This document shows, piece by piece, positions 2 through 29,403 of a stretch of 32,000 nucleotides of DNA. Every line of letters starts with the position of its first letter. Position 1 is the first letter of the stretch. The translations under genes and the position numbers were made by a program. The notes below the pieces were generated by a model, which was not told the origin of the DNA, searched no databases, and was given only the letters and a program-made list of their open reading frames with translations. Origin of the DNA: an uncultured Nitrososphaerota archaeon (GTDB lineage Archaea > Korarchaeota > Korarchaeia > Korarchaeales > Korarchaeaceae); assembly GCA_964480775.1 (NCBI GenBank), contig CAYZRF010000002.1, positions 60,001 through 92,000 of the forward strand, read 5' to 3'.

Positions 2-205
2 GAGGCGCATCAAATCTTCAATAAAAGTAAGATATTGATTATAGATACTTCTTGTAAAAGCATTGATGCAATAGCAAGCGAAATAATAGACCTTGTTATT
101 TACAGAAAGTTATCAACAAACAAAAATGCTAAGAAACTCACAGATTGGTCTTTTAGAGCGCCTTGGATTTCAAAAATTCTTTCTTCCGCTTATAGTAGAA
201 CTTAG
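2..205 (+). CDS. C-terminal fragment of a small P-loop kinase-like protein (partial; 5' end lies outside the window)
   Basis: Frame 2 is open from the window edge to the TAG at 203-205. The translation ...EAHQIFNKSKILIIDTSCKSIDAIASEIIDLVIYRKL... resembles the C-terminal end of small archaeal nucleotide kinases. It is absent from the ORF track because it has no start in the window. It would overlap the convergent ATPase gene by 53 nt. Confidence 0.3.
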   Translation, partial: EAHQIFNKSKILIIDTSCKSIDAIASEIIDLVIYRKLSTNKNAKKLTDWSFRAPWISKILSSAYSRT

Positions 206-2006
206 GAGCAAGTGAAAACAAATAAGTCAAATCTTCATCTTCTAGCTCAGGCGGTAGATACTCTGGCTCTATTTTGATTCTTGGAATCTCTGAAGAGTTT
301 CTAAGTACTACGATACATTCACCAGTTCTTAAATGATGGATTTGATGAGCGATTTTTCCAATAGCCTTTACAGATGGTCCAAGCAAGCTGTGGATGAAAG
401 ATACATCCTGAGTAGAGCCCAAAGCGTGAATAATTTTTGTTGACGCATTTCTTATGATGTGCGAAGATAGACATGAAGGAGACTGGGAGATCACTATGAA
501 ACCCTCCCCATACTTTCTTAATTCGGAGATCATTCTATCTCCAATGGTCAGTCCACTAAGGTCTGTTAACATAGGCAGGACTCTATCGGCTTCCTCTAAC
601 ACCGTTATGTGCCTTACTCCACTAGTTCTTCCCTTCTCTTTGTTGTAGTAGTATATTCTTCTTAGTAACGTGAAGACAAACACCTCTCTGACGCCTTGTG
701 TAGCAATGTCTCTTAGTTCTATGCTAATTAAGCCGCTCATAAGATCTTCCATTCTAGGTAAACTCTCCTTACACAGAACTTTTCTGGCCTCTCCTCTAAC
801 CAGGGGATAAATTCTCCTCAGAAGAGCTCTTTTACTTTCCTGTTCGGCTTGGCCGGTGGTTTCAAAAGCAGCAATTTCCTCATACAAATCGATAAGTGTT
901 GGTGATTCTCCCTTTGTCGCCTGATCTCTCAAACGAATAAGTCCTTTCAATAGAAGGTATGTTTGTGGAGGAGTTAGGCCAAAAATGATAGTGAACTGCT
1001 CTGCAATTTCGTCTAACATGGATTCACCGGCATCTTCGAGGCCTTCTAGTACGTTAATCGACAACAAATCACTATCTATTTTAGGAGATATCACTCTGCC
1101 GCCCATTAAAAGAACTATGTCTCTATATTCGTTCTCATAATCAAAAATAAGAACAGGAATTCCAATTTCCCATATTTTTGATACCAGAAACTTTGAAGTC
1201 GTGGTCTTACCAGAACCAGTCCTTCCGAGTATGGCGGTATGATGACATAAGTCCTTTAGGCTTAGTTTAACTACTGAACCGTTAGGTTTTCTACCTAACT
1301 CCACTGACAAAGATTCGACTGGGTTTGTTGGTACACCTTCTTTGAGAATTATTCGAGCCAAAGCTAGCTGAAAACGAAAAAGAAGACCATCTGAGAGAGT
1401 TCTTAAGCGAGAGCCCTTCAAGGCTACAACATCCCAATTATCTCCTAATCGAGCTTTTATCGTGCTCTCCGCTCTGTCCAGCATCGATTTTGCTACTTTT
1501 AATCCTCCTACATCCTTCTCATTTACCCAAAGCAGGATTACTCTACTTTGAAAAACCTCTGCACTTTGATCGTTGTTCGAACACATGGTAAGATCTATCC
1601 AATATTTCTGGGGTTTTTTAGGAGAGCACACCATCATTAGAGAGGAATTAATACCCATATGGGCTAGTATCTCCGCTATTTGAGAGAATTTCGTTTCTAT
1701 ACTATTATCTTCAGAAGAACTAAGCTCTAGAGCCTTTACTAAGACACGATCATTCTTAATGTGAATTAGAATCTTGTCTTGAGTAAACAACACTTCGCTT
1801 AGGTTAGGATTTCTTTCGATTCTACTGCTATGAGATAAATCAGCTCTAAAATATAACACAAGAAGCGGTACGAAAATAACTAAAATCAAAACTCTAACAT
1901 CAACACTCATCAAAATTGGTAAGGCTCTTTTGTAAACTTCATACGCGATCAAAAGAGCTAGAAGACAAAAAGGGAATAAGTTAGATACCTCTTTACTTCC
2001 TAACAT
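153..2006 (-). CDS. Membrane-anchored HerA/FtsK/VirB4-superfamily (DUF87-like) ATPase, CedB-like
   Basis: 617-aa ORF. Two N-terminal hydrophobic helices (LFPFCLLALLIAYEVY, VRVLILVIFVPLLVLYF). Walker A ILGRTGSGKTT followed by IPVLIFDYENEY. Walker B ITVLEEADRV. HerA-type RKYGEGFIVISQSPSCLSSHIIRNASTKIIHAL. Its start overlaps the stop of the upstream TFB-like gene by 14 nt. Confidence 0.75.
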   Translation of the reverse strand: MLGSKEVSNLFPFCLLALLIAYEVYKRALPILMSVDVRVLILVIFVPLLVLYFRADLSHSSRIERNPNLSEVLFTQDKILIHIKNDRVLVKALELSSSEDNSIETKFSQIAEILAHMGINSSLMMVCSPKKPQKYWIDLTMCSNNDQSAEVFQSRVILLWVNEKDVGGLKVAKSMLDRAESTIKARLGDNWDVVALKGSRLRTLSDGLLFRFQLALARIILKEGVPTNPVESLSVELGRKPNGSVVKLSLKDLCHHTAILGRTGSGKTTTSKFLVSKIWEIGIPVLIFDYENEYRDIVLLMGGRVISPKIDSDLLSINVLEGLEDAGESMLDEIAEQFTIIFGLTPPQTYLLLKGLIRLRDQATKGESPTLIDLYEEIAAFETTGQAEQESKRALLRRIYPLVRGEARKVLCKESLPRMEDLMSGLISIELRDIATQGVREVFVFTLLRRIYYYNKEKGRTSGVRHITVLEEADRVLPMLTDLSGLTIGDRMISELRKYGEGFIVISQSPSCLSSHIIRNASTKIIHALGSTQDVSFIHSLLGPSVKAIGKIAHQIHHLRTGECIVVLRNSSEIPRIKIEPEYLPPELEDEDLTYLFSLAPKFYYKRKKEFLKSKAL

Positions 2007-2805
2007 TTGTTGTCATTCCTCTCTGAGTTAATTCTCCTTCAAGCATCATAGTAAGCATCTTGGCTCTCTTCCTTATGACAGTTTTATGGCTATTTATCGC
2101 TCTGGCTACCGCTTCTTGTGTTATATTCCTTAGTCCTAATTGTTTTGCAGCTATGTAAACAGCAGCAGCCGAAATTATCAATGGGCTCTTGCCAAGGAGA
2201 TTGAACCTTGCTAATTCGTTTGAATGAAGTAGTTTGATTATCTTTAAAGCTCTTAGCTGAATTCTGTCAAAATGATTTGGAAGATGAGACCTATAAGAAC
2301 GTCCTTTGCTAAGCAAGCCCCCTTCGTCCAATTTTCTTAGGACATAAGCTATGTAAGCTTCATATCTCCTGTTTCCTCCTTTAATTCCGAGCGTTCTTTC
2401 TATCTCATTCATCTTCCTTATAAGAGTCTGTTCTCCACACGCACATCCTAAAGATTCAAGCAAGGTTTTAACTTCTTTAATTGTTACAACTCGGTTATCG
2501 TTTCTCGAAGCTAAAACCAATGCTGCTGCTGCATAGTACACCTTATTTCTTGCTTTTATTCCGCTCTTCTTCAAGAAATTGCCAAGCATGTAAGAAGCTC
2601 TTTTTTGTATCCTATAAGGAATGTTGATTTCCTCTCCTAGCCTTCTTACTATCCTATAGACATAATCTCTGATTATACCTTGATTATCTATGAATTCATC
2701 GCAACCAAAATTATGAAATGCATGAACACGCCCGCATTGGCTGCAAGCTATATGATCCTCAAACCAAACAAGTTCTCCACCGCAATAAGAGCATATCCAA
2801 TTCAT
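1993..2805 (-). CDS. TFB/TFIIB-family transcription factor paralog (Zn ribbon plus two cyclin repeats; B-reader/B-linker region missing)
   Basis: N-terminal CxxC-x12-CxxC ribbon (CSYCGGELVWFEDHIACSQCG). First cyclin repeat (IPYRIQKRASYML...YYAAAALVLASR). Second repeat with a BRE-recognition-like helix (ITQEAVARAINSHKTVIRKRAKML). Only about 20 aa separate the ribbon from cyclin 1, against roughly 70 in canonical TFB. Total length is 270 aa. Confidence 0.8.
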   Translation of the reverse strand: MNWICSYCGGELVWFEDHIACSQCGRVHAFHNFGCDEFIDNQGIIRDYVYRIVRRLGEEINIPYRIQKRASYMLGNFLKKSGIKARNKVYYAAAALVLASRNDNRVVTIKEVKTLLESLGCACGEQTLIRKMNEIERTLGIKGGNRRYEAYIAYVLRKLDEGGLLSKGRSYRSHLPNHFDRIQLRALKIIKLLHSNELARFNLLGKSPLIISAAAVYIAAKQLGLRNITQEAVARAINSHKTVIRKRAKMLTMMLEGELTQRGMTTNVRK

Positions 2806-2907
2806 TATTTTATCGCATTATCTAAACAAATGCAATTTTTGTACTTATAGGACCTAAAAGGTAGTTTTAATGGACTACAAGTAAGTAGACTCCCATAAGA
2901 AATAGTT

Positions 2908-3267
2908 TTACTGTGTTCCAAATCCTTTTATACATAGGTACACTTCTAAACCTTCAGAAATCTCAGAAAAAGCCTCAGATTTCAGGTTGATTATGGCCAC
3001 CAGCCCTCCAAAAGATAATATTGCCCTTTTATTTTCATTTTGAATGGAAAGCACTTTACCATGTAGAAGAATACCGTTTTCACACTTTGTATTCGTATTC
3101 TCAGTTGTGAAAAGTGAAACTTTCCCCTCCATTCCAACTTTAAATTTTCTAAAACTTTTAGGCAGTTCGATTTTGATGTCAGCTACTTTACCACTCAAGT
3201 AATAACGATGGATAGATTGTGCTTTGTCAAATTCAATATTATTTATCTTCACTTGTAGTTCCATCAC
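2908..3267 (-). CDS. rpoG: RNA polymerase subunit Rpo8 (RpoG, Rpb8 homolog)
   Basis: 119-aa ORF. The C-terminal LLHGKVLSIQNENKRAILSFGGLVAIINL...VYLCIKG matches the Rpb8/RpoG signature (hGkVy...a..SfGGLLm.l) as I remember it. No alignment was run. Confidence 0.6.
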   Translation of the reverse strand: MMELQVKINNIEFDKAQSIHRYYLSGKVADIKIELPKSFRKFKVGMEGKVSLFTTENTNTKCENGILLHGKVLSIQNENKRAILSFGGLVAIINLKSEAFSEISEGLEVYLCIKGFGTQ

Positions 3268-3342: not shown

Positions 3343-3702
3343 ATGTTTCAAATGAGTTTCTATCATAATTATGATTATTTTACACAGCTACTGTTTGTAC
3401 ATGCTGAACTTAAAAAGAAGATAGCAAAATTTCTTGAAAATAGCAATTACAGTGGAGAAATATCTCAGCTTAAATTAGAGATAAACAAACTAGTAAAATC
3501 ACTTCTCTATTCGCTGTTATGGACCAAAGAATCAACTCTTTGGAAAACTGCTCTGAGAATAGCTAACAATCCTCTTCCAATAAACGAGAAGAATTCATTT
3601 AACGAACTTTACAGAACAATACTGCTTTCTACCATCTGTACTAAGTTAATCTTTTCAGAGATCAGCGCCATAGTGGCTTCGAAGAGAAGGCGAGAAAGTT
3701 AG
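3343..3702 (+). CDS. Hypothetical helical protein
   Basis: 119-aa ORF fills the otherwise roughly 440-nt gap between rpoG and the PRC-barrel gene. No recognisable motif. Convergent with the PRC-barrel gene, leaving only 6 nt between the stops. Confidence 0.4.
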   Translation: MFQMSFYHNYDYFTQLLFVHAELKKKIAKFLENSNYSGEISQLKLEINKLVKSLLYSLLWTKESTLWKTALRIANNPLPINEKNSFNELYRTILLSTICTKLIFSEISAIVASKRRRES

Positions 3703-3708
3703 ATTACT

Positions 3709-3999
3709 TCAAGTTCCTCCTCTTTTTGTGGCTACATATACTTGCAATAGCTTCTCACTAACAACCACCATATCACCGATGCTACTTACTGTATTATAAG
3801 GAAGCAACAAATTTCCTTCCGCATCCTTCATTAGAAGCCTTGTGATTGATTTTTCTGAGCCCTTTATTTCCTCAATTATTATCGATAGCATCTTTCCAGA
3901 TAATTCGTCACATATCAAATCAACAACTTTACCTATTACTGCCCCTTTATCGGTGACAACGGTCTTATGAGCTAGCTTTTCAATCGAGTATTTCGCCAT
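3709..3999 (-). CDS. PRC-barrel domain protein
   Basis: 96 aa. VVTDKGAVIGKVVDLICDELSGKMLSIII...LLPYNTVSSIGDMVVV is typical of stand-alone archaeal PRC barrels. An SD-like GGTGATGA (4004-4011) lies 4 nt upstream of the ATG. Confidence 0.7.
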   Translation of the reverse strand: MAKYSIEKLAHKTVVTDKGAVIGKVVDLICDELSGKMLSIIIEEIKGSEKSITRLLMKDAEGNLLLPYNTVSSIGDMVVVSEKLLQVYVATKRGGT

Positions 4000-4229: not shown

Positions 4230-5002
4230 TTATTCATCCTTTTTCCAAAGAGCAGGATATAAATTCCTATCCATGATTACTCTTATGGGTTCAGCCACAG
4301 TCCCCCTATCCATCTCAATGAGTTCTTCTGAACTCACTAAGCTCCTAGCTAAAGCAACAAGTTCTCCCTTAAGAGTAAAAATTCCAACGGAACAATCTTT
4401 TCTCATCTCCTTAGAGAAGGCGCAGATTCCTGGAGCCTTAACACTTGCACCATGTGCAACTGACGCCACTGCTGTGTCTTTTATGATAACTTTAGGTAGA
4501 AGTTGTGCTACTATCGTCTCAAGGGGGATTATTTCATCCCTAAGATAGGCATCATTACCCGTATTTTCCCATAGGATCACGGCTCTTTCCAATTCTTGAA
4601 GAGTAATACTGCTAGCTTCTGTCAGAGGACCAGCCCTAATACGTCTGAGTTCTCTCATACTTGCCCCGCATCCCAAAAATTCTCCAATATCATGAAATAA
4701 TTTTCTTATGTAAGTGCCAGCCTCTACAGAGACTTTGAGCAGAACATACCTCCCATGCCTTTCAATCAGATTTATTTCGTAAATTCTTCTTGTTCTAAGC
4801 CTTCTCTTTACTGTGGCTTTAATTGGAGGTCTTTGAAAGATCAAACCAGTAAATTCTTTCAGTGCAAGAAGTAATGAATCGTCAGAAACTTCCCCATGCA
4901 GGTAGAGAACACCAACATACTCCTTTCCAGCTTTTGTCAGTAGTTTTGCTATCCTTGTGGCTCTTCCTAATAAAATGGGCAACACTCCGCTTACCTTGGG
5001 AT
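4230..5002 (-). CDS. cbf5: tRNA/rRNA pseudouridine synthase Cbf5, exon 2 (TruB catalytic core plus PUA domain)
   Basis: After splicing it continues (G)AU CCC AAG GUA... = D-PKVSGVLPILLGRATRIAKLL.... The track ORF 4230-4985 carries the rest of the TruB core and the C-terminal PUA-like region. The frame is continuous from 5002. Confidence 0.88.
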
Positions 5003-5031
5003 CTCCCTGAGCCTTCCTTAAGGAAGGCCCA
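5003..5031 (-). other. 29-nt bulge-helix-bulge (hBHBh') pre-mRNA intron inside cbf5
   Basis: Intron RNA is UGGGCCUUCCUUAAGGAAGGCUCAGGGAG. Outer helix UGGGA(5042-5038)/UCCCA(5001-4997). Central 4-bp helix CCCU(5037-5034)/AGGG(5008-5005). 3-nt bulges AGU(5033-5031) and AGA(5004-5002). Inner 9-bp helix with a UUAA loop. Excision restores the frame and the GTLDP motif. Confidence 0.85.
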
Positions 5032-5233
5032 CTAGGGTCCCACTATGCCCTATTTTACCAGAAAACCTCAAAATTTTCCTTATCTTTTGAGTTACCGCAT
5101 GAGAAGTAGGTCCTTGGGGTTTATCTAAGTTTATAACCCCATGGTCAAGGTACAGGTCTATTGGCCTTTTCTCTGGATAGAAGCCATAAGGTCCCGGCTC
5201 ACAATCTTGTTTTACAACAAGTTCCTCCTCCAT
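5032..5233 (-). CDS. cbf5: Pseudouridine synthase Cbf5, exon 1
   Basis: MEEELVVKQD...VINLDKPQGPTSHAVTQKIRKILRFSGKIGHSGTL(D). The last exon nucleotide (G, 5032) is the first base of the Asp codon. An SD-like GGAGAAAGTGAT lies upstream of the ATG. Confidence 0.88.
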
Positions 5234-5541: not shown

Positions 5542-5865
5542 TTATGAAACTGACGCCTTCCCTTTTAATAGGCTTTCCCCTTCTTTTAGTGCTCTCTTTA
5601 GAACGATCTTTCGAAGACATGAAGGACAAAGGTTGCCCCCATATGGTCTGTTAGGTCTTTTTTTACTCTTTGGAAGCTTCTTCATGAAAGATCTAGTCCC
5701 CGTTGGCGTTGCATTAAGGGGCTTTTTACATATGGCGCACCTAGCTGGACCCTGACGCTTTGCCTTATAGTGATAAACTACCTTGCCTCCCGGAGTTCTA
5801 ACAGCCACTCTCCTCTTTTTCAGCCTTCTTTTGGTTCCTCTAACATTTAGTTCGATTATTCTCAT
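5542..5865 (-). CDS. rpl34e: Ribosomal protein eL34 (L34e)
   Basis: VAVRTPGGKVVYHYKAKRQGPARCAICKKPL...CPSC, a basic Zn-binding L34e pattern. Confidence 0.9.
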   Translation of the reverse strand: MRIIELNVRGTKRRLKKRRVAVRTPGGKVVYHYKAKRQGPARCAICKKPLNATPTGTRSFMKKLPKSKKRPNRPYGGNLCPSCLRKIVLKRALKEGESLLKGKASVS

Positions 5866-6368
5866 TACTGTTCAACCTCCAGAGTTGTGCCTAATACTTT
5901 CTGAAGTATAAATGAGAATAGGTATGATACTAGCATATAATAACCAAAGTATCCCAGGACATTCGTTGAAAGCGAACTATTCCTCCTAAATATAACCAAA
6001 AAAGGGATTTCAATCGGTAGTTTGACGATCGGAACCTCTCTGTATAAAGGAGACAGCAACTGCCAAATTATTAACAATGGAAGAGTTACGTAAAGCATAG
6101 GCTTCATACTCATGCTAAAGCTTTCAGCCCTAGCTCTGTCTACGTCTGGTTTGAGTTTCTCCATTTTCTTCTTTATTTTCTTGTCTCCAGTGCGAAGGAA
6201 CTCTCTTTGAAGTTCATAGTACTCCTTCTGAATCTGGTTTAGTCTTCTTAACTTTTTGTAATCAATTGTCTTCTTGTTGACTAGTTGAACAAATAGAGTG
6301 ATAAGAAAAGCCAATAATGTCAGAAAAGCGAAAGAACCAGGAGGAAATACAATCCAATCGAGCTTCAA
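5865..6368 (-). CDS. DUF106 membrane protein (archaeal YidC/Oxa1/EMC3-like insertase homolog)
   Basis: 167 aa. TM1, then a basic coiled-coil (KKLRRLNQIQKEYYELQREFLRTGDKKIKKKMEKLK), then two further TM helices. Conserved location immediately downstream of secY. Confidence 0.8.
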   Translation of the reverse strand: MKLDWIVFPPGSFAFLTLLAFLITLFVQLVNKKTIDYKKLRRLNQIQKEYYELQREFLRTGDKKIKKKMEKLKPDVDRARAESFSMSMKPMLYVTLPLLIIWQLLSPLYREVPIVKLPIEIPFLVIFRRNSSLSTNVLGYFGYYMLVSYLFSFILQKVLGTTLEVEQ

Positions 6369-6379
6369 GAGAATCCCTC

Positions 6380-7786
6380 CTATACTCCAAGGAATGCTTT
6401 AAGCCTTGGATATAGCTCTAACATCCTTTCTCTGGCAATGACTTCATAGAACGATATCGTGATCGTTACTCCAAGCAATAACCCGCTACCCGTTCCTATG
6501 GCCCCCGCGAAATTGGCTCCTGCTGCAAGAAGTCCAACTAGAGCCCCTCCAAGTATGGTAACGCTCTCTATGTAGTCTTCAATTACCTTCGCTATCACCT
6601 TTGAACTTGCTCTCCTTCCTGGTAGAACAAGTCCCTGTTCAACAAGTTGCCGCGACACGCTTTCAGGATCCATTCCTGCAGTAATAACCCAAATCTTTGC
6701 AAATATCACGCTAGAACCAACCATTATAGCTAGATAAATAAGAGAACGAAGAGGATCTTGGATTATATCGGTTGGGCCTCGAGGCGTGGCGATATAATAG
6801 GCTAGTCCTCCAACAGGAATTGGTTGTCCTCTGGGATCCAATTCAAAAGTGCCTAGTATGTTCATCAGGGTTTGTTGCCACCCAGTTGCTGTTTCTGAGA
6901 ATCTAGACCATACTATTTTGGCCATGAGATCTATGTCTCCCATAAGAGCAAGAGCGAATATTATTGGAACATTGCTAACATAAAGCAATCTTATCGGGTA
7001 TCTCGTTCTTTGTCCTCTCATTAATGTATGACTAATTGGAACATTGACCCTAATACCATAAGTTATTACTACAACAAGTATTACAATGATAGTAGAAGCG
7101 AGACCGATCAAATCGGGCAAGCCAGACCTATATATAGCCCCCGACTTTTCTATGATTAAGGCCGACAAGACTCCAACAACACGTCCAGTCTCAGGCACTT
7201 TAATGTTTGGAGGGGCAAAAATATTCCAAAAAACGCCAGTAGTCACGCCAGCAAGAATAAAGAGGCTAATACCACTACCAATACCCCACTTACTCACCAA
7301 ATCATCAAGCATCATCAACATCAAACTACCAAGGGAGAGTTGAATGATGACCAGTACATTTCTACTTAGCTGCATAGCACCAAATCTACCACCTATCACA
7401 TAGAAAACACTGTAAGTTATTATGAGCACTATTGAAAGGACCCTTTGAATTGCTTGGAAAAGCCTTCTGTCTTCAGGATCAGTTAGGTCCAAGCCTATGA
7501 TACCACTACCTACTAAGAGTTCTATCACTATACCTGCTGTAACTATCGGTCCAATTCCGAGTTCTATGAGACTTCCGAAAGAACCTGCAAAAATAAGCCT
7601 CAATTCTCTGAGATAATCGTATCTTGTTTCTGGAACACCCCAGAGAGGGATATTTGATAGCAAGTAATATACAACAAGCACTAAACCAGTCCATATTAGC
7701 CTCTCCTTAAGGGAAGGCCGCTGTTTAGGTCTTTCTACGGTTGGTATCCCTTTATTTATGAGAAGAATAATGTTTCTAACACTCAA
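6380..7786 (-). CDS. secY: Preprotein translocase subunit SecY
   Basis: 468-aa polytopic membrane protein with a SecY-type N-terminus (KERLIWTGLVLVVYYLLSNIPLWGV). TTG start preceded by a strong SD GAGGTGGTGAT. Follows uL15 as in all archaea. Confidence 0.95.
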   Translation of the reverse strand: MSVRNIILLINKGIPTVERPKQRPSLKERLIWTGLVLVVYYLLSNIPLWGVPETRYDYLRELRLIFAGSFGSLIELGIGPIVTAGIVIELLVGSGIIGLDLTDPEDRRLFQAIQRVLSIVLIITYSVFYVIGGRFGAMQLSRNVLVIIQLSLGSLMLMMLDDLVSKWGIGSGISLFILAGVTTGVFWNIFAPPNIKVPETGRVVGVLSALIIEKSGAIYRSGLPDLIGLASTIIVILVVVITYGIRVNVPISHTLMRGQRTRYPIRLLYVSNVPIIFALALMGDIDLMAKIVWSRFSETATGWQQTLMNILGTFELDPRGQPIPVGGLAYYIATPRGPTDIIQDPLRSLIYLAIMVGSSVIFAKIWVITAGMDPESVSRQLVEQGLVLPGRRASSKVIAKVIEDYIESVTILGGALVGLLAAGANFAGAIGTGSGLLLGVTITISFYEVIARERMLELYPRLKAFLGV

Positions 7787-7799
7787 CTATATCACCACC

Positions 7800-8252
7800 T
7801 CACTGGGCCAATATGGCCTTTCCCCCAGCCTCCTCAATTTTCTTTATAGCACTTTCTGAGAAAGCTTTACACTTAATTGTTATGGGAGAACTAAGTCTTC
7901 CCATTCCTAAAACTTTGTCATATCCTGCCTTTGTAAGATCAACCTCAATTAGTCCCTCATCTGTCTTACTAGCAAGGTTAAGCCTCAAGAAATGTCCAAT
8001 TTTCTCTTCTATCTGTCTAAGATTTATTGTCTTTTTTGGAACAGCCTTTGGCACTTTAAAGCCTCTTCTACCACGCCCAAAGTAGTCCAAATCCTTCGCA
8101 GCAGTCCATGTCCACTTGTGCTTATGAAGCCCAGCTTTGCCTCTTCCACCCCTTCTTCCTCCTCCTCTGTGCTGTCTAAGCTTTCCATATCCATGAAACC
8201 TGCTTCCACGATATTTCTTAGTTTTCTTCTCTCTCCTTGGAATCGTCTTCAT
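7800..8252 (-). CDS. rpl15: Ribosomal protein uL15
   Basis: KKYRGSRFHGYGKLRQHRGGGRRGGRGKAGLHKHKW glycine/arginine-rich N-terminus, plus conserved operon position. Confidence 0.93.
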   Translation of the reverse strand: MKTIPRREKKTKKYRGSRFHGYGKLRQHRGGGRRGGRGKAGLHKHKWTWTAAKDLDYFGRGRRGFKVPKAVPKKTINLRQIEEKIGHFLRLNLASKTDEGLIEVDLTKAGYDKVLGMGRLSSPITIKCKAFSESAIKKIEEAGGKAILAQ

Positions 8253-8253
8253 A

Positions 8254-8745
8254 TCATATCATCCTCCTCAATAGTTCATTTATATCATTTCCTCGATACC
8301 CAAGCTCTCCCTTATCCTTCCATGCTCTTTTTGTGCTTCGTTTGAATCCTTTTCTCGGCGGCCTGAGTCTGAAGTAGGGCTTTAACCAGCCTATTTTATG
8401 AAATTTAACCTTATCATTAATTATGGCTCTAGCAAGATCTTCTATGCTGTTGAATTCGGTGTTTTCTGATAACCACTCATCTGTAAGCTTTCCACCATTT
8501 TTTAGCTCACCACGTTCTCTAAGAAGAAGAGAGAGGGTATCCAAGTCTATTTCTCCATAAGTTGAGTAATCCTTAATCCTGTTCAACATTCCTAGCTGGG
8601 TTGGTTCTTTAGGAATTATTGTAGCTCTAAATTTTCTTTTTAGATGAAGCATCTCCATTGTCGTTCGAACCTCTGGTCTAGCGTCAATAAGGCCTCTTAT
8701 CCTTATAACAGCCATAACTCTGCCATCGGAGCCCGTTCCTTTCAT
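8254..8745 (-). CDS. rpl30: Ribosomal protein uL30
   Basis: MAVIRIRGLIDARPEVRTTMEMLHLKRKFRATIIP. The true start may be the internal Met at residue 11. Confidence 0.92.
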   Translation of the reverse strand: MKGTGSDGRVMAVIRIRGLIDARPEVRTTMEMLHLKRKFRATIIPKEPTQLGMLNRIKDYSTYGEIDLDTLSLLLRERGELKNGGKLTDEWLSENTEFNSIEDLARAIINDKVKFHKIGWLKPYFRLRPPRKGFKRSTKRAWKDKGELGYRGNDINELLRRMI

Positions 8746-8811
8746 TTATAATTCCTCCAAGACCAAATGATCGATTTCAACACCTCAGATCTTGAACCCA
8801 CTTTTAAGGAT

Positions 8812-9453
8812 TCATATCTCTGATCTAGACACGAACTCTCTTTCCCCAACTGGTAACTGAATTGCCATCAGGTTTCTAAGTGCATTATGGATTGCAAAAG
8901 CATAATTCATTCTATTTCTCGTATTTCCCCTGGAGAAGACCCTTATATCTTTAATTCCTCCAAGAGATAGGATCACCTTAGCAACCTCGTTTGCAACAAG
9001 CCCAGCCCCCCTAGGGGCTGGAATAAGTTTTACTCTAACTGAACCCATCTTTCCAGAAACCGTGGCTGGTATCGAGTGCGGTCTACCACACCCACATTCC
9101 CAAGAACCACAACCCTTTCTAACCCTAATTAGATTGAGCTTAGCCCTTTTTATCGCATCGTTAAAAGCATCCCGAAATTCCTTACCCTTTCCTCTTCCAA
9201 CCCCAATGTAATCAGATCCGTCCCCTATCGCTATTACAAGTCTTAAACTGCTAAGCTCTCCAGCATCAGTTTGCCTCTGTACCCTTCTAACCTCTATGAT
9301 CTCTCGTCTTAACTCTGGTAGCAAAATGTCAACTATTTCAGGTTCTCTAATAACAAGCCCCTTTTTGAAAATTTCATCCAATGACTTTATTTTTCCCTCA
9401 GCAACTAGCTTTCCAAGCCTGGTTCTTGGAACCCATTCTTCTTCTAGACTCAA
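8812..9453 (-). CDS. rps5: Ribosomal protein uS5
   Basis: VQRQTDAGELSSLRLVIAIGDGSDYIGVGRGKGKEF...GSVRVKLIPAPRGAGLVA. Confidence 0.94.
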   Translation of the reverse strand: MSLEEEWVPRTRLGKLVAEGKIKSLDEIFKKGLVIREPEIVDILLPELRREIIEVRRVQRQTDAGELSSLRLVIAIGDGSDYIGVGRGKGKEFRDAFNDAIKRAKLNLIRVRKGCGSWECGCGRPHSIPATVSGKMGSVRVKLIPAPRGAGLVANEVAKVILSLGGIKDIRVFSRGNTRNRMNYAFAIHNALRNLMAIQLPVGEREFVSRSEI

Positions 9454-9470
9454 ATCATGGCACCCCCATT

Positions 9471-10082
9471 CTAAGCATTAAGCTTCCCTACTTCCTCCCC
9501 TATCTTTTCTAAAACTAATTGAAAGACCTTAGGAATCTCTTCGGGATCAACTTCCTTCTTCCGATATTCAGAAAATATTCTATCATAAAATTCTTCTCCT
9601 CTCTCCTTTAAAGCAAGAGCTAGTTCGGCTATATGTTTACCTTCTATCCTTTCCTGCTCAGGTAGGATCTCATCAGAGTGAGGGATCAAAATTCCAGCAT
9701 CTAAGGCTCCTTTAAGTGCGGCATAAAGTCTAGAACCCCTTGTTGAAGGGTATCTTCCTATGTCCAAAATCGCCTCCTTTATGCCAGCCTTTATCGCTCT
9801 TAGAGCAGCCATATAACCTGTAAGATATGCTGCAGGAAGATTTTTACAAGAAAATGACCAACCAAATTTCTCCAATTCTTTAGAATATGCGTAAGCGAGG
9901 ACTTCATCTCCTTCCAACTTAGATTTAACAAATTGAACCGTGACGAACCTGTCACTCCTTCGGACAACCATTCTGATTTTTCCACTTTTTAGAAGAGCAA
10001 GTCTTTTATGATAGTCTGTTTTTCCTTCCCTTCTCCTTCTAAATTTAACTTTGTATCTAGCTGATCTTGCCAACTCACTCAC
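9471..10082 (-). CDS. rpl18: Ribosomal protein uL18
   Basis: YKVKFRRRREGKTDYHKRLALLKSGKIRMVVRRS. GTG start overlaps the eL19 stop. Confidence 0.93.
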   Translation of the reverse strand: MSELARSARYKVKFRRRREGKTDYHKRLALLKSGKIRMVVRRSDRFVTVQFVKSKLEGDEVLAYAYSKELEKFGWSFSCKNLPAAYLTGYMAALRAIKAGIKEAILDIGRYPSTRGSRLYAALKGALDAGILIPHSDEILPEQERIEGKHIAELALALKERGEEFYDRIFSEYRKKEVDPEEIPKVFQLVLEKIGEEVGKLNA

Positions 10083-10512
10083 CTCTCGCGGGTACCACCC
10101 GTCTTCTCACATGAGATTTCAAGTGAGCGACGCTTGAAAACGTAGAAAGTCGGGGATAAAGCTCTCTGTATTCCTTTTTGCTTATTATCCCGCGATCTCT
10201 CATTTCTCTAAGGGTTTTTCTAAGAGCTCTTATCTTTCTCATCCACCTCATCTTCTTACTTAATCTAGCATACTTACTACCCTTATAGCTCCCAGGACCC
10301 CTTCTCTTACCTTTTCGAGCTCTGGCTCTTGCTCTGCTTGTTCCTCTTTTTTGAAGTACTTTAATTGCCCCTTGAGCAATTAATCTATCTATGTCTCTTC
10401 TGGTAACTGCTTCCTCTATATCTTCTATCTTCTCTGGGTCAAATTTAATGCGATCTATCCCCACACCAGCCACCTTGGCTGCTATTTTCTTTTGGTACTT
10501 TAGATCGGTCAT
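10075..10512 (-). CDS. rpl19e: Ribosomal protein eL19 (L19e)
   Basis: LKYQKKIAAKVAGVGIDRIKFDPEKIEDIEEAVTRRDIDRLI. ATGA overlap with eL32. Confidence 0.93.
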   Translation of the reverse strand: MTDLKYQKKIAAKVAGVGIDRIKFDPEKIEDIEEAVTRRDIDRLIAQGAIKVLQKRGTSRARARARKGKRRGPGSYKGSKYARLSKKMRWMRKIRALRKTLREMRDRGIISKKEYRELYPRLSTFSSVAHLKSHVRRRVVPARGE

Positions 10513-10904
10513 GGTTTCTCCCCAACCCCCCCTCTTGTGACTTTAATTCCTAACTCCTTTGCTTTCTCAATCAAAAGGAGCCTTTTTCTCCTTCCAACGG
10601 TTTTACCGATGTATACAATGACTTTTCCCCTTACTTCTTTGGGGATTCTTTCAAGATCAGAAACGCTATGAACTACCTTGGGTATAAGTCCTGTAGGATG
10701 CAAACCCCTAATCTTTTCTGGGTTCTTATAACCTATTGAAGGAACTTTTGGTTGGCCTTTCTTTCTCATCCTTTGCTTATTATCGATGCCGCGCGGTCTT
10801 CTCCAAGAAGTAAGACCATGACCATGCAAGTATCTTCCTACGTTTAAGAACTTGGGTTTTTTCTTCTTTAGCTTTAGAAGATTCTTTGATGAAGCCTTGC
10901 TCAT
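10509..10904 (-). CDS. rpl32e: Ribosomal protein eL32 (L32e)
   Basis: WRRPRGIDNKQRMRKKGQPKVPSIGYKNPEKIRGLHPTG. Confidence 0.93.
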   Translation of the reverse strand: MSKASSKNLLKLKKKKPKFLNVGRYLHGHGLTSWRRPRGIDNKQRMRKKGQPKVPSIGYKNPEKIRGLHPTGLIPKVVHSVSDLERIPKEVRGKVIVYIGKTVGRRKRLLLIEKAKELGIKVTRGGVGEKP

Positions 10905-10906
10905 TT

Positions 10907-11494
10907 TTATCCCTCCTTAAGAACGTATATACCATCCATAAATACTCGCGGATCCTTTCTTCGTATCTTGGTGGCCTGCCTTAAGTTCGCAGCCGTTTGT
11001 CCTACTTCTTCCTTTGAAATTCCTTCAACAATTATTTGATCTTCTTTGACGGTCACCTTAGTCGAGTCCCCTATTATCTTAGCCCTTCTTGGTTTCTTTT
11101 CACCAAGAAAGTTGTGTATGAGAATCGTTCTGTTAGCTTCATCCACTTCTACTCTAATTGGAAAGTGTGCAAATGCAACAATAAGCTTTTTCCTGAACCC
11201 CCGTGTTACTCCTATCATCATATTTTTCAAATGAGACTTCATCGTGTTCAGATAAGATCTCTCAAATTTCCTTGGATTAAATACTCTTAAAACCACCTTG
11301 TGAGTCTTATCATTTACTTCTATATGCAAGAGTCTAGAATTAAATTTCTTTCTCAATTCACCTTTTGGACCCCTAACTACAATTTCTTCCCCTTCTATTG
11401 ATACATTAACTTCTTTTTCTATGTCAACTTCTAATGATAAGGAGAAATCAGCGATTTTGTTCCAAACCTTTGTTGGAATTTCAGTTTTGCTCAT
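10907..11494 (-). CDS. rpl6: Ribosomal protein uL6
   Basis: Two-domain L6 pattern (VSIEGEEIVVRGPKGEL...GVTRGFRKKLIVAFAHFPI), plus operon position. Confidence 0.93.
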   Translation of the reverse strand: MSKTEIPTKVWNKIADFSLSLEVDIEKEVNVSIEGEEIVVRGPKGELRKKFNSRLLHIEVNDKTHKVVLRVFNPRKFERSYLNTMKSHLKNMMIGVTRGFRKKLIVAFAHFPIRVEVDEANRTILIHNFLGEKKPRRAKIIGDSTKVTVKEDQIIVEGISKEEVGQTAANLRQATKIRRKDPRVFMDGIYVLKEG

Positions 11495-11506
11495 TTTGTA
11501 ATCACC

Positions 11507-11899
11507 CTAATAACAGTACGCTATGAGAACCCCGCCCACTCCCAATTTTTTGGCTTCTTTATGAGACATGACCCCCTGGGAAGTCGAAACGATTATAACG
11601 CCTATGTCTCTGGCGGGCAAGAAAAGCTTCTCCCATGGCTCAAAATCATCTTTCTTTACCGAGAATCTGGGCTTTATACTCCCTGCTTTATTAATTTTCC
11701 CTAAAAGCTCGACTTTGTATTTTGCATGCCCTCCTTCGTATACTCTCTCAAATCTTCCAATGTAACCTTCTTTCTGTAAAATACTCAGGACTTTTCCAAT
11801 CAATTTTGAGGCTATGTCGATCGTAACTTCTCTTTTTCCAACTATAGAGGCGTTTGTTATCTTGCTAAGGGCATCTGCTAGAGGATCCATTCTAGTCAT
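11507..11899 (-). CDS. rps8: Ribosomal protein uS8
   Basis: [22 protein letters not shown]...[31 protein letters not shown]. Confidence 0.94.
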
Positions 11900-11911
11900 T
11901 TTACTTTCCCC

Positions 11912-12073
11912 TCACTCATACTTCTTCCATCCCATAAGGGGCGCCACTTCCCTGAAACACTGCCGACACAGGTACAGGTTGTACTTTCTTATGATGCCAT
12001 ATCCCACCCTACCACAGCGTCGACATCGATAAGCCCCCTTGCCTTTCGTTTTCTTTCTGGCCTCCATAGCCAT
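11912..12073 (-). CDS. rps14: Ribosomal protein uS14 (type Z, zinc-binding); too short for the supplied ORF track
   Basis: Hand translation of the minus strand gives [53 protein letters not shown] (53 aa, CxxC...CxxC). SD AGGTGAT lies upstream. It sits exactly between uL5 and uS8. Confidence 0.88.
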
Positions 12074-12074
12074 A

Positions 12075-12650
12075 CTAATCACCTTCCTCTACTATCTCAA
12101 GATTTAGATAATTCTTAGCGAAGACGATTGCCTCCTCTTTCGAGATAAGATGTTTTCTAGGAATATGACTTCTTTTAACTCTTCTCCTTTTTACCCTATA
12201 ACCAGCTCGTTCTAATGCAACATTGACATCCATACCAAATACGCCAATTTCGGCTTTATACTTAATTCCAGGGATATCAATGTGTTCCTTTATACCAAAA
12301 GAAAAGTTACCGAACTCATCAAATGAACTGGCTTTTATTCTCCTCCCCACGCCCTCCACAATTCTATCCAAGATTTCTAAAGCCCTCTTTCCCCTAATAG
12401 TGACAGAAACCGCTATAGGTTCTCCTTTTCTAATTCCAAAATTCCTTATCGTTCGTTTTGCTCTGTGTATGACTGGCTTTTGACTGGAAAGCTCCTCCAA
12501 AATCGAAGATGCCTTTTGTAAAATTTCACCACCACGACCTGGACAAATATGTAATGTTACTGAATGAACTCTTGGCATTAATGTCGGATTTTTCCTCCAT
12601 TTTTGGATAATTTCTTCCTCCATTGATATAGTATGTAGCCCAGAACTCAT
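12075..12650 (-). CDS. rpl5: Ribosomal protein uL5
   Basis: [15 protein letters not shown]...[23 protein letters not shown]...FGMDVNV. Confidence 0.93.
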
Positions 12651-13372
12651 TCTTCTCTCACCCTTATAGCTGGTACGCCTTCTCCAACCACCATTATATT
12701 TCTAGCAAGAACTCTGTACACCCTATCTGGCTGATCTACGTCTTTGGTCTCGATAAGATCACTAACTTTCTCTACTTTACAAATTCTACCCGCGTTCTCT
12801 CCTCTGAGAATGATTCCAACAAAACCCTCTTTAAGTGGGAAATACCGAAGTATCTCCTGACTAGGGACTTCTATCAGAAGAGAATCTCCCACAGAAAGTC
12901 CAGAATATTCACTGTCTCGATCAATAACAAAAGTTCTACCATCATGGGTACCTATCTGAAGTTTTCCTTCTTTAAATGTTACTTTCCTTTTGATTTTAAC
13001 TATTTTCTTATTAGCATCCTCCTTTGGAATTTCAATGGACTTTATGAGGTGCTTAGTGTCAGGAACTAGTCGTAAGTAAAGATCCATTTCTGGGATAGAA
13101 ATTACATCCATCAATCCTACAATGAATTTGTAGTCGTATCTCGGCTTTCCATCAACAAAGACTTTTTTCTGAGATATTATCTTACGGGCCTCTTTTCCAG
13201 TTAAGGCTAAACCTAAAACATCTCTTACCAAGATAAGGAGAGGAATTCCATCTTCTATCCTGTGAGGACCAGGCTTAGGTCTCGCTGCCCACTTTTTTAT
13301 TCTTCTTGGAACTGGCCAGTGTTTAGGGCTGGCCAATCTTTTGAGATGTGCGGTACTACCTTTTCTACCCAT
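12647..13372 (-). CDS. rps4e: Ribosomal protein eS4 (S4e)
   Basis: GSTAHLKRLASPKHWPVPRRIKKWAARPKPGPH.... 4-nt overlap with uL5. Confidence 0.94.
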   Translation of the reverse strand: MGRKGSTAHLKRLASPKHWPVPRRIKKWAARPKPGPHRIEDGIPLLILVRDVLGLALTGKEARKIISQKKVFVDGKPRYDYKFIVGLMDVISIPEMDLYLRLVPDTKHLIKSIEIPKEDANKKIVKIKRKVTFKEGKLQIGTHDGRTFVIDRDSEYSGLSVGDSLLIEVPSQEILRYFPLKEGFVGIILRGENAGRICKVEKVSDLIETKDVDQPDRVYRVLARNIMVVGEGVPAIRVREE

Positions 13373-13741
13373 TTAGCCCCCCCTCCTTTCTAATGCTGCC
13401 TTTCTTTCCTCATCTTTCAAGTCTAATTCTATAATCATAACTTTAGAAGGATGAATGGGTATTGGTACTTCCGTTCCATCAACTTTTCTTCGTCTTAAGC
13501 CCTCTATGTGAATCCTGTATTTCTTTCTGTCTACTTTAATTACCTTGCCTTCATGCATCTTGTAATCTCCTCTTAGTATTACAACCTTGTCTCCAACCTT
13601 GATCGGGAAAGACCTTGTAAGATATTTATCTCTGAGTTCTGGAGACAAGTGAGCTGACATGATCTTGCCTCGATGGTGTTTCGGGGCTCTATATAAGTAC
13701 TTTCTTTGTTTCGATGGTTTAGATGATTTAGGTCTTTTCAT
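13373..13741 (-). CDS. rpl24: Ribosomal protein uL24
   Basis: KOW motif [23 protein letters not shown] prefer the ATG at 13741 ([14 protein letters not shown]..., SD GAGGTG 7 nt upstream) over the TTG at 13762 given in the track. Confidence 0.9.
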
Positions 13742-13754
13742 AAACAACACCTCT

Positions 13755-14183
13755 TCATACAACGGTTGCTGCTAATGCGCCCAGGGCTGGCCAACGTTCT
13801 ATTGCTTCTTTAGCAATCGGACCCTTAACCTCGCTACCTTTAGGAACTCCCTCGTTGTCTACTAGAACTGCAGCGTTGTCCTCAAACTGAATCCATTGTC
13901 CGTTCTTCCTCCTGTAAGCTTTTTTCTGCCTAACAACTACTGCTCTCATTGGTTTGTGCATGAGTTCATTTTTACCCTTTTTTACTACAACTACCACCAT
14001 ATCTCCGACACTTGCAGAAGGCAACCGGCCCTTTCTACCTTTGTATCCCACCGTACCAACTACTTCTAATATTCTAGCGCCAGTATTGTCCGCACATTTG
14101 ATTCTGGCAAGTGTTGGAAGGCCACGAGTTATTTTAGGTTTAACGCCTTGAACCTTGCGTCTCCTTGCAAGCCTTCTAGCCAA
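13755..14183 (-). CDS. rpl14: Ribosomal protein uL14
   Basis: [49 protein letters not shown] start preceded by SD GGAGGGTGA (14187-14195). Confidence 0.94.
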
Positions 14184-27380: not shown

Positions 27381-27854
27381 GTGGGATGTACATTGCCATC
27401 ATTCGGATATTCATATCAAGAACTTAAGGACAATGAAGCACGAGCATCAGGAAGAGACCTTAGAGTCTCTTACAAAGAGATGGTTGAGCTTCTATCTGCT
27501 ATAAGGGGATTAAAGATAGATAAAGCGAAACAATTGCTAGAGGATGTAGCGTCCCTAAGGAGGCCGGTACCTTTTAAGAGATATGTAAAAGGAGTGGGTC
27601 ATAGAAAACAGCTTCAAGGCTGGAAGATAGGTAGATATCCTGTTAAAGCGGCCAAAATTGTTTTGAAGATTCTGAAAAATGTAGAATATAATGCAACAAA
27701 CAAAGGTTTAGATCCAGAACGCTTGTACATAAAACACGCCGCTGCTCACAAAGGACCTAAGCTTAGAAGATTCTTTCCTAGAGCTTTTGGACGGGCTACT
27801 CCAAAGGTAGAACAACTTGTTCATGTAGAAATTGTGGTGGAGGAGAGAGAATGA
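27381..27854 (+). CDS. rpl22: Ribosomal protein uL22
   Basis: ASGRDLRVSYKEMVELLSAIRGLKIDKAKQLLEDV...HVEIVV. GTG start is uncertain; the TTG at 27393 is also possible. Confidence 0.9.
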   Translation: MGCTLPSFGYSYQELKDNEARASGRDLRVSYKEMVELLSAIRGLKIDKAKQLLEDVASLRRPVPFKRYVKGVGHRKQLQGWKIGRYPVKAAKIVLKILKNVEYNATNKGLDPERLYIKHAAAHKGPKLRRFFPRAFGRATPKVEQLVHVEIVVEERE

Positions 27855-28639
27855 GCGAAGGAGCAAAGCCCATATACAAAAGAATAGTCGAGGAAGGATG
27901 GCTTAAAGCAAGACTTCAGGAATTCTTTGAGTCTACACTTAGAACGGCAGGATTTCATAAAGTGGATGTAGTAAAAACACCAATTAGAGAAGTTGTAACA
28001 ATTTATGCTGATCGGCCTGGAATTGCAATTGGAAAAGGGGGAAAGAGGATTAAAGAGATAACAGAATCGATGAGAAGAGAATTTGGGTTCAAAAACCCCT
28101 ATCTCAGAATAGAAAAAGTAGAAGAACCTTTCCTAAGCGCTCAAATAGTCGCTAACTACATAGCAAGAAGGATATTAAAGGGAGAGAGGCACAGAAGAGT
28201 CGCCTTTGCTGCACTTAGAAGGGTTATGATGGCTGGGGCTGAAGGAGTAGAGATTAGGATATCTGGAAAATTTGGAAAAAGAGCGAGAGAAGACAGATTT
28301 AGAGCTGGAGTTATTTATCGTTGCGGTGGCGACTATTTAGAGAATGTAGAGTATGCCGTGAGGAATATACTCTTACCTCAAGGGTCTATGGGAATAAGAG
28401 TTAGGATAGCTAAACCTGGAACAAGGTTACCTGGCAAACCTTCAATTAGGGAAGAGGAAATAGAAAAAATCTTGACAGAAAAATCATTAGAAGAGGAAGA
28501 GGAGAAGGAAGAAATATCTAAAGAAGAATCTGAAGAGACAATTACCGAAGAAAAAGTTAGAGAAGAGGTAGAGGAGGAGGAAGAGAATGCCGAAGATGAA
28601 GGCGGAGGAGTTAAGGAATCTGAGCAGGGAGGAACTTGA
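27851..28639 (+). CDS. rps3: Ribosomal protein uS3 with a long acidic C-terminal tail
   Basis: KH domain (IYADRPGIAIGKGGKRIKEI) and S3 C-domain. ATGA overlap with uL22. A tail of about 60 aa is rich in E/K. Confidence 0.92.
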   Translation: MSEGAKPIYKRIVEEGWLKARLQEFFESTLRTAGFHKVDVVKTPIREVVTIYADRPGIAIGKGGKRIKEITESMRREFGFKNPYLRIEKVEEPFLSAQIVANYIARRILKGERHRRVAFAALRRVMMAGAEGVEIRISGKFGKRAREDRFRAGVIYRCGGDYLENVEYAVRNILLPQGSMGIRVRIAKPGTRLPGKPSIREEEIEKILTEKSLEEEEEKEEISKEESEETITEEKVREEVEEEEENAEDEGGGVKESEQGGT

Positions 28640-28787
28640 AGCAAGGCTTCGAGAGCTAAGAGAACAGCTATTTTCTCTTAATACCAAGTCAGCGCTCGGT
28701 ACTTTGGAAAAAACTCATATGAGAAAGGAAATAAGAAGAGAAGTTGCTAGAATCCTTACAATCATGAGAGAGAGGGGCTTTCTTTGA
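28587..28787 (+). CDS. rpl29: Ribosomal protein uL29
   Basis: MKAEELRNLSREELEARLRELREQLFSL. Start at 28587 or 28596; both lie inside the uS3 reading frame. Confidence 0.9.
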   Translation: MPKMKAEELRNLSREELEARLRELREQLFSLNTKSALGTLEKTHMRKEIRREVARILTIMRERGFL

Positions 28788-28801
28788 GGGGGAAACACAA
28801 A

Positions 28802-29065
28802 ATGAAAAAGTCAGACCTTCCTTATCATGAACTGATAGGTCTTAAGACTAAGGTTATCTTTTCACCAGATCCAACTCAAATAGGAATTTCTGGTAAAATA
28901 ATTGATGAAACAGCAAATCTTCTTATAATAAGAACTGAAAAAGGTGTAAAAAAGATACCAAAAGATGGCAGGGTTTTTGAGTTTATTATTAGAGAAAAGC
29001 AGGTTGTCGAGCTTAATGGAAAGAACATTCTTGGAAGACCTGAAGAAAGGGTGAAGAAATTATGA
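28802..29065 (+). CDS. rnp1: RNase P protein component 1 (Rpp29/Pop4)
   Basis: ELIGLKTKVIFSPDPTQIGISGKIIDETANLLII...ILGRPEERVKK. Canonical position between uL29 and uS17. I prefer the ATG at 28802 (SD GAGGGGG) over the TTG at 28784. Confidence 0.88.
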   Translation: MKKSDLPYHELIGLKTKVIFSPDPTQIGISGKIIDETANLLIIRTEKGVKKIPKDGRVFEFIIREKQVVELNGKNILGRPEERVKKL

Positions 29066-29403
29066 GGAGACTTCCAGATTATTTAATTGAGGATGTAGAA
29101 AAGCCAACTGAAGAATGCAATGATGATAAATGCCCTTGGCATGGAGACATTTCACTTAGAAAGAAAACCCTAATTGGTCGAGTTGTGTCTACAAAAATGA
29201 CTGGCACAATCAGTGTTGAAATATCTTGGCTGAGATATGTTCCAAAATATAAAAGATACGAGAGGAGAAGAAGGAAAATTCACGCACACATCCCGCCTTG
29301 CTTATCAGTTAAGGAAGGAGATCTTGTTAAGATCATAGAAGTAAGAAGATTAGCAAAAACAGTGGCCTTTGTCACGCTAGGCAAGGTGAAAGGAAAGCAA
29401 TAG
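29062..29403 (+). CDS. rps17: Ribosomal protein uS17
   Basis: CNDDKCPWHGDISLRKKTLIGRVVSTKMTGTISVE...KEGDLVKIIEVRRLAKTVAF. Confidence 0.93.
   Translation: MRRLPDYLIEDVEKPTEECNDDKCPWHGDISLRKKTLIGRVVSTKMTGTISVEISWLRYVPKYKRYERRRRKIHAHIPPCLSVKEGDLVKIIEVRRLAKTVAFVTLGKVKGKQ

Follow-up and report, generated by a model that had tools for sequence, protein, structure and literature searches.

A short TFB paralog encoded in overlap with a CedD-like membrane ATPase in Korarchaeia

Why would an archaeon encode a truncated paralog of transcription factor B (TFB) in overlap with a membrane-anchored ATPase of a DNA-translocase clade? The question is raised by two genes in a 32-kb stretch of DNA, referred to here as the window (32,000 nucleotides; positions 60,001–92,000 of contig CAYZRF010000002.1, assembly GCA_964480775.1), from an uncultured archaeon that the GTDB taxonomy places in the Korarchaeia. 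Close homologs of both proteins are labeled by NCBI as 'Candidatus Korarchaeota archaeon' or as Thermoproteota metagenome-assembled genomes (MAGs). We estimate a probability of about 0.5 that the pair is a korarchaeal, operon-fused counterpart of the TFB3/CedD module of the crenarchaeal DNA-import (Ced) system. The features on which this reading turns are:

1993–2805, minus strand: short TFB paralog (the TFB-like protein), 270 residues, ATG start; from the open reading frame (ORF) list, Pfam, AlphaFold2 (AF2), Foldseek and profile alignment
153–2006, minus strand: membrane-anchored CedD-like ATPase of the HerA/VirB4 clade, 617 residues, ATG start; from the ORF list, profiles and AF2
1993–2006, minus strand: 14-nt overlap between the stop of the TFB-like gene and the start of the ATPase gene; from the ORF coordinates

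The TFB-like protein contains a TFIIB repeat recognized by Pfam (E 1.1e-12) and scores 39 bits with the NCBIfam TFIIB model, which has a cut-off of 384 bits. Its AF2 model, built from a 22-sequence family alignment with a mean predicted local distance difference test score (pLDDT) of 81, begins with a three-stranded ribbon at residues 11–29 (strands 11–15, 18–21 and 27–29) that aligns with the TFIIB ribbon; the Zn-ribbon cysteines are C5, C8, C21 and C24. A low-confidence linker stretch (residues 31–46) leads into two five-helix cyclin bundles (residues 51–139 and 148–263), and the disordered linker from C24 to the first cyclin helix is just 26 residues long. When the family profile is aligned with full-length human TFIIB, ~59 residues are missing at the very place between ribbon and cyclin 1 that the B-reader and B-linker occupy in TFIIB, and ~19 residues are inserted between the two repeats. 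Foldseek matches the model to TFIIB, TFB and Brf, with a TM score of 0.76–0.79 and a root-mean-square deviation (rmsd) of 3.2–3.3 Å for the TFB core of P. woesei. The segment HKTVIRKRAKML (residues 240–251) aligns with the helix that recognizes the B recognition element (BRE), which reads VTIRQSYRL in human TFIIB and VTVRNRYKEL in P. woesei TFB, and its arginines R245 and R247 are invariant across the TFB-like family. Across the family it is the cyclin core that does not vary, above all GKSP-x5-A-x2-V-x2-AA-x2-LG-x-R-x3-Q, together with the arginines of the helix-turn-helix (HTH).

The protein therefore shares with canonical TFB/TFIIB the Zn ribbon, two cyclin repeats in a TFB-like arrangement and the HTH recognition helix, but differs in lacking the B-reader and B-linker and in the longer connection between the repeats. 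An earlier note, made from the letters of this stretch, had described just such a paralog, and the AF2 model, the Foldseek matches and the profile gap all bear that description out. A TFB without these two elements is not expected to stabilize the template strand or choose the start site alone (PMC7289017). The family is narrow: an exhaustive profile search returned 49 matches at E≤1e-3 among 1.84 billion representatives, and canonical TFBs scarcely registered in it. This search reached the distant short-TFB family, whereas word-indexed protein searches reached close relatives only. The full-length TFB matches that were looked up are paralogs from Asgard archaea, Thermofilum and Nitrososphaerota.

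The partner protein carries the central-domain motifs of DUF87/HerA (Pfam DUF87, E 1.1e-15), with a Walker A motif GRTGSGKT (residues 261–268), a Walker B motif VLEEAD (within 468–474) and invariant residues E495, R497, K498 and Q508. Two N-terminal helices (residues 5–32 and 37–58), of which the second is strongly and the first weakly hydrophobic, are followed by a lineage-specific α/β N-domain (~65–230) and the ATPase domain (233–572). All orthologs, and the CedD-like proteins too, have hydrophobic segments at the N terminus. In the AF2 model (pLDDT 73), the RecA-type domain resembles HerA of S. solfataricus, the C-domain of DndH/DptH and the C-domain of VirB4 from T. pseudethanolicus, with TM scores of 0.71–0.73 for the latter two. 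These results support the placement of the protein in the HerA/VirB4 DNA-translocase clade and its anchoring in the membrane, as the earlier note had proposed.

The note had gone further and compared the architecture with that of CedB, which the profiles do not support. Of the 18,950 NCBIfam models, CedD matches best (NF053655; E 2.4e-44, 152 bits over residues 233–572, compared with an equivalog cut-off of 600 bits), followed by crenarchaeal HerA (7e-19, 68 bits, with a cut-off of 800 bits). The CedB profile (NF041017) gives no match to the window ATPase at E≤0.1, and only 29.5 bits against a 700-bit cut-off with the ATPase ortholog of locus L001 (see below). Profile–profile alignment by hhalign of the korarchaeal with the Thermoproteia CedD-like ATPase domain extends over 300 columns, including a helical insert, at 29% identity (E 1.5e-45, probability 100%). 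Thus, the ATPase is, as judged from its sequence, CedD-like rather than CedB-like, and a divergent relative of CedD rather than its equivalog. CedD (Saci_0667/SiRe_1715) was reported in 2024–25 as the second, VirD4/VirB4-like ATPase of the Ced system and as indispensable for DNA import (PMC11823120; bioRxiv 10.1101/2024.09.27.615246); Korarchaeota are unmentioned in these reports.

The likeness to CedD (TedD in Thermoproteales) extends to the N-terminal membrane anchor, the presence of an N-domain before the HerA-clade ATPase domain, and the rpoG and opposite-strand kinase surroundings, which are those of Desulfurococcales-type CedD-like genes. The window ATPase differs in being ~90 residues longer, in its operon fusion with a TFB paralog and in its korarchaeal host, which lies outside the reported distribution of CedD. 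With CedB, VirB4 and the HerA-NurA system it shares the P-loop fold of the FtsK-HerA superfamily, but VirB4/TraC profiles match it near Walker A only. As for HerA-NurA, no nurA, mre11 or rad50 gene is present nearby in the window, and the ATPase gives no HAS-barrel match.

The TFB-like gene ends with a TAA at 1993–1995, 14 nt inside the ATPase ORF, in agreement with the overlap given in the earlier note, and a purine tract, GAGAGGAA, lies ~12 nt 5′ of the ATPase ATG. This arrangement is consistent with translational coupling.

Loci with members of the TFB-like family were gathered by exact-sequence look-ups and one metagenome scan, which yielded close relatives only, and were re-analyzed by phmmer. 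All the korarchaeal loci recovered have the pair (the window, L001–L006, L013 and L017–L024), so that what the earlier note could only surmise to be a fixed operon is kept in all relatives found. Identities below are those of the TFB-like protein to that of the window:

L002–L006 and L017–L020: PRC-barrel gene, ORF on the opposite strand, rpoG, TFB-like gene, ATPase gene, kinase gene on the opposite strand; TFB-like and ATPase genes overlap by 8–20 nt
L001: 41% identity; paired, with a 168-nt gap
L013: 29% identity; paired, with a 4-nt overlap
L022: 26% identity; paired, with an 11-nt overlap
L023: 23% identity; paired, with a 25-nt overlap
L024: 23% identity; paired, with a 135-nt gap

In L001, rpoG is lost from the block and the surroundings are different (Cdc6, RFC), and the pair is still together. 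The only unpaired family member is a second paralog, P0102, from a MAG that also has one of the paired genes. Its loci (L014, 6001–6777; L015, 689–1465) contain small unknown ORFs and DUF5131, RHH and glycosyltransferase genes; P0102 matches phrog_20431 and is probably a viral or mobile TFB-like gene. The pair itself occupies a fixed, single-copy core-genome site beside ribosomal and tRNA-modification genes in all lineages. In three lineages (L013, 6001–6741; L022, 5001–5642; L023, 5001–5798), the TFB-like partner has no Zn ribbon, yet its gene overlaps that of the ATPase; the frames cannot be extended to a ribbon, and no upstream CxxC is found in any frame.

Within the window, the block shared with these relatives has the order PRC-barrel gene, 119-residue ORF (opposite strand), rpoG, TFB-like gene and ATPase gene. 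Upstream of the pair it consists of:

2806–2907, minus strand: 102-nt intergenic spacer between rpoG and the TFB-like gene, carrying the GGTCCTATAA block
2908–3267, minus strand: probable RpoG/Rpo8, 119 residues, directly upstream and codirectional (PF16992, E 5.6e-5)
3343–3702, plus strand: ORF of 119 residues without a family match, kept in the korarchaeal block; from the ORF list and homology
3709–3999, minus strand: PRC-barrel protein, 96 residues, first gene of the conserved block; from Pfam and homology

The PF16992 match spans the full length of the RpoG candidate, with a score below the cut-off. The GGTCCTATAA block, ~45–55 nt upstream of the ATG of the TFB-like gene, does not vary among six relatives, although identity over the entire spacer is only 78%. 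It is a plausible candidate for a TATA/BRE element that would give the pair its own promoter. No conserved match to the Sulfolobus ultraviolet (UV)-promoter hexamer A(N)TTTC was seen by eye upstream of the pair. A scan for intrinsic-terminator-like and sigma-70 signals, which is of a bacterial type unsuited to archaea, gave none above shuffled expectation.

The neighborhood also leads to the crenarchaeal genes. A layout of rpoG, a CedD-like gene and a small kinase gene on the opposite strand is found in a Pyrolobus MAG (L009), in Zestosphaera (L012) and in a third crenarchaeon (L011), and the korarchaeal pair is syntenic with these cedD-like genes. In L011, a 200-residue TFB consisting of a Zn ribbon only is encoded ~2.5 kb upstream of the cedD-like gene. 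Another locus, L016, encodes a CedD with a score of 565 bits, near the equivalog cut-off, and has the order cedD, thermosome gene (opposite strand) and a 164-residue Zn-ribbon TFB (opposite strand), with rpoG 3 kb beyond. Truncated, TFB3-like Zn-ribbon genes are thus placed 2–3 kb from cedD in both L011 and L016. By its locus tags (Saci_0665/SSO0280/SiRe_1717; PMC6934391, PMC2246294, PMC7515695), Sulfolobales tfb3 lies two genes from cedD (Saci_0667/SiRe_1715), and the L016 layout agrees. TFB3 activates ced genes; Feng et al. found it enriched by chromatin immunoprecipitation at the promoter of SiRe_1715 (cedD) and reported that Crenarchaeota with Ced tend to have truncated TFBs as well (PMC6101594). 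Earlier, Koonin et al. (2007) had described rpoG as running in the same direction as a TFIIB-family gene in a korarchaeote and as divergent from one in Thermoproteales (PMC2234397). Thus, rpoG, a non-canonical tfb and cedD make up a neighborhood that spans Korarchaeia and Thermoproteia, and a link of the korarchaeal pair to the TFB3/Ced circuit of Sulfolobales is plausible.

In its features, the window protein resembles Sulfolobales TFB3 in having a four-cysteine ribbon but no B-reader or B-linker, in presumably not being a stand-alone initiation factor and in being encoded in the cedD/rpoG neighborhood; in Sulfolobus, TFB3 activates ced genes including cedD. The two proteins differ in what else they retain. 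In TFB3 (164–200 residues), the HTH is gone together with most of the cyclin core, and the C-terminus is described as a coiled coil. Both cyclin folds remain in the window protein, as does the BRE helix, and some of its korarchaeal orthologs have lost the ribbon instead. Furthermore, tfb3 is a separate, UV-induced gene, on the strand opposite to cedD in L016, and the two share no operon.

The small putative kinase (NCBIfam PRK03839; AAA_18/AAA_17) is encoded convergently to the 3′ end of the cedD-like gene, often overlapping it, in L009 (region 8837–11527), L011 (5595–8205), L012 (5207–7627) and the korarchaeal loci, and is a third deeply conserved neighbor across Thermoproteia and Korarchaeia. 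In Zestosphaera (L012, 5660–7032), the CedD-like gene is called as a 343-residue ATPase that follows a separate, overlapping ORF of 114 residues, which may be the membrane/N-terminal part encoded as a gene of its own, or the result of a frameshift.

We suggest that the pair would work as follows. The first gene would encode a non-initiating TFB paralog, the cyclin core and HTH of which would sit on promoter DNA of the TBP/BRE type; in the clade of the window, its Zn ribbon might also dock RNA polymerase. Without B-reader and B-linker, the protein would neither open DNA nor set a start site by itself, and this absence is the reason for proposing that it is a promoter-specific modulator (activator or blocker), acting beside the canonical TFB and probably on its own promoter too. 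The second gene, on the same mRNA, would supply a membrane-anchored, presumably hexameric HerA/VirB4-type ATPase of the CedD family that would power translocation of DNA across the membrane. The domain anatomy, the family placement, the gene overlap, the deep conservation of the pair and its synteny with crenarchaeal cedD are observed, whereas orthology to TFB3, such regulation, DNA import and any response to DNA damage are inferred.

Several observations weigh against equating the pair with the TFB3/CedD module. The CedD match lies far below equivalog level and covers only profile positions 197–518, and hhalign finds no common sequence in the N-terminal 200–240 residues of korarchaeal and Thermoproteia CedD-like proteins, so that the N-domains cannot be aligned. 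No cedA, cedA1, cedB or ted gene was seen in the window or in the flanks examined (≤10 kb). Between the TFB-like protein of the window and the TFB3-like proteins of L011 and L016, only the ribbon aligns confidently by phmmer and hhalign (52% identity over 27 residues, with the common motif C-x-YCGG-x-L-x-W). Because sequence support is limited to the ribbon, we put forward TFB3 orthology as a hypothesis only. In Sulfolobus TFB3, the ribbon and a short C-terminal region are the essential parts (PMC6101594); the korarchaeal family reverses this pattern, with an invariant cyclin core and a ribbon that is lost in three lineages. Since the ribbon is gone from three lineages that retain the ATPase partner, the family as a whole cannot have a TFB3-like mechanism of docking RNA polymerase as its conserved function. 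Finally, the neighbors are housekeeping genes, and the adjacency to rpoG and the kinase gene could be a frozen accident.

The alternative to which we give the most weight, although we consider it unlikely, is this: the TFB-like protein would be a general competitive repressor, or an alternative promoter-selectivity factor, tied to RpoG and RNA polymerase in the manner proposed by Koonin et al. (2007), and the ATPase a mere syntenic neighbor with an unrelated membrane function. In most loci the gene for RpoG comes immediately before the TFB-like gene on the same strand, and its adjacency to TFIIB-like genes in Thermoproteales and in a korarchaeote has been published (PMC2234397). Moreover, in crenarchaeal loci rpoG adjoins cedD with no TFB gene between them, and the neighborhood alone is therefore no proof of function. 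On the other hand, it is the ATPase gene that the TFB-like gene overlaps, whereas toward rpoG there is the 102-nt spacer with its own conserved promoter-like box. In L001 the pair has outlasted the loss of rpoG from the block. Moreover, cedD is under the direct control of TFB3 in Sulfolobus (PMC6101594).

We regard as doubtful a second alternative, in which the TFB-derived protein has ceased to act as a transcription factor and is instead a stoichiometric partner of the ATPase, serving as substrate adaptor or gate of a membrane DNA translocase; its cyclin/HTH core would bind DNA or the lineage-specific N-domain of the ATPase. Subunits produced in a fixed ratio are typically encoded by genes that overlap and are translationally coupled, and the pair is kept in the three lineages without the Zn ribbon, the element that docks RNA polymerase. 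The conservation of the cyclin core with its HTH, the lineage-specific nature of the N-domain and the very narrow distribution of the family would fit as well. Against these stand the residues of the BRE helix and the arrangement of the repeats as in TFB, both kept as expected for a protein that binds a TBP–DNA complex, and the two lineages in which a gap of 135–168 nt takes the place of the overlap. We know of no other TFB core with a role beyond transcription. In a wider form that we also hold to be improbable, Korarchaeia would have taken a TFB-derived cyclin-core protein into the dedicated service of a membrane DNA translocase, where it may bind DNA/TBP as an adaptor or gate and not serve as a transcription factor; alternatively, the protein may be an ancestral, full-core TFB3 that autoregulates a DNA-uptake operon. 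On this reading, the repeated loss of the Zn ribbon would imply a conserved job independent of RNA polymerase.

A reading of the ATPase as the HerA-type motor of an anti-virus defense or mobile-element system, regulated by the TFB-like protein, is highly improbable and was rejected on the weaker PADLOC scores and the core-genome context: the PADLOC defense HerA models do match (best E 6e-18), the fold resembles the C-domain of DndH/DptH and P0102 lies in a virus-like block, but the defense models reach at most 63 bits compared with the 152 bits of CedD, none of the effector partners SIR2, DUF4297, NurA or Dnd is adjacent, and the site is fixed in the core genome of all lineages, unlike defense islands.

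The korarchaeal pair does not form a new category: known families account for its parts, and experiments in Sulfolobales have already tied TFB3 functionally to cedD. The suggestion in the earlier note that the arrangement is undescribed thus needs to be narrowed. It stands for the direct, overlapping TFB-ATPase operon, of which we found no description in the literature. It does not extend to the association as such, given the codirectional pair of rpoG and a TFIIB-like gene noted in 2007 (PMC2234397), the position of Sulfolobales tfb3 two locus tags from cedD (PMC6934391, PMC7515695) and the presence of TFB3 at the SiRe_1715 promoter (PMC6101594). What appears to be undescribed is the deep conservation of this operon in Korarchaeia, the architecture of a TFB partner with a full core but no B-reader, and the repeated loss of the Zn ribbon from that partner.

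The pair bears on how TFB3 activates the DNA-damage and DNA-exchange regulon of Sulfolobus, and on where TFB3 and the Ced ATPases originate. A B-reader-less, full-core TFB hard-wired to a CedD-type ATPase outside the classical Crenarchaeota suggests that the link between transcription factor and translocase predates Sulfolobales and is older and more varied than described, and the korarchaeal protein is a possible intermediate form in the evolution of TFB3. The reading predicts a so far unreported apparatus for DNA uptake or exchange in Korarchaeia. The ribbon-less variants offer a natural experiment on which TFB domains matter, and both proteins are small enough for direct biochemistry.

The surroundings of the pair are those of a core chromosomal region and not of an island. 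All close relatives have the 119-residue ORF of 3343–3702 at its place between PRC-barrel gene and rpoG; in L001 its conservation is weak. Farther upstream of the PRC-barrel gene are cbf5, the genes for L34e and an EMC3/TMCO1-like membrane protein, secY and the spc ribosomal-protein cluster. The other genes of the window are also of a housekeeping nature (mevalonate-pathway enzymes, GatD/E, PolB, ribosomal proteins and the glycine-cleavage T protein).

Two further features of this region are worth recording. The cbf5 gene (4230–5233, minus strand) is split into two ORFs, with the junction at ~4986–5017. On the minus strand, the junction reads GHSGTL, an insert of ~29 nt and DPKVSGVLP; the insert contains a perfect hairpin, CCTTCC-TTAA-GGAAGG, and has the signature of a bulge-helix-bulge mRNA intron, known in crenarchaeal cbf5. 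The split is found also in the relatives L002, L005 and L006. The ribosomal-protein supercluster is likewise in two pieces: L22-S3-(RNase P p29)-S17 is on the plus strand (27381–29403), and the part from L14 to SecY is on the minus strand (5542–14183), ~13 kb away. The mevalonate-pathway genes, gatD/E and polB lie between the two pieces, which implies an inversion or insertion between S17 and L14.

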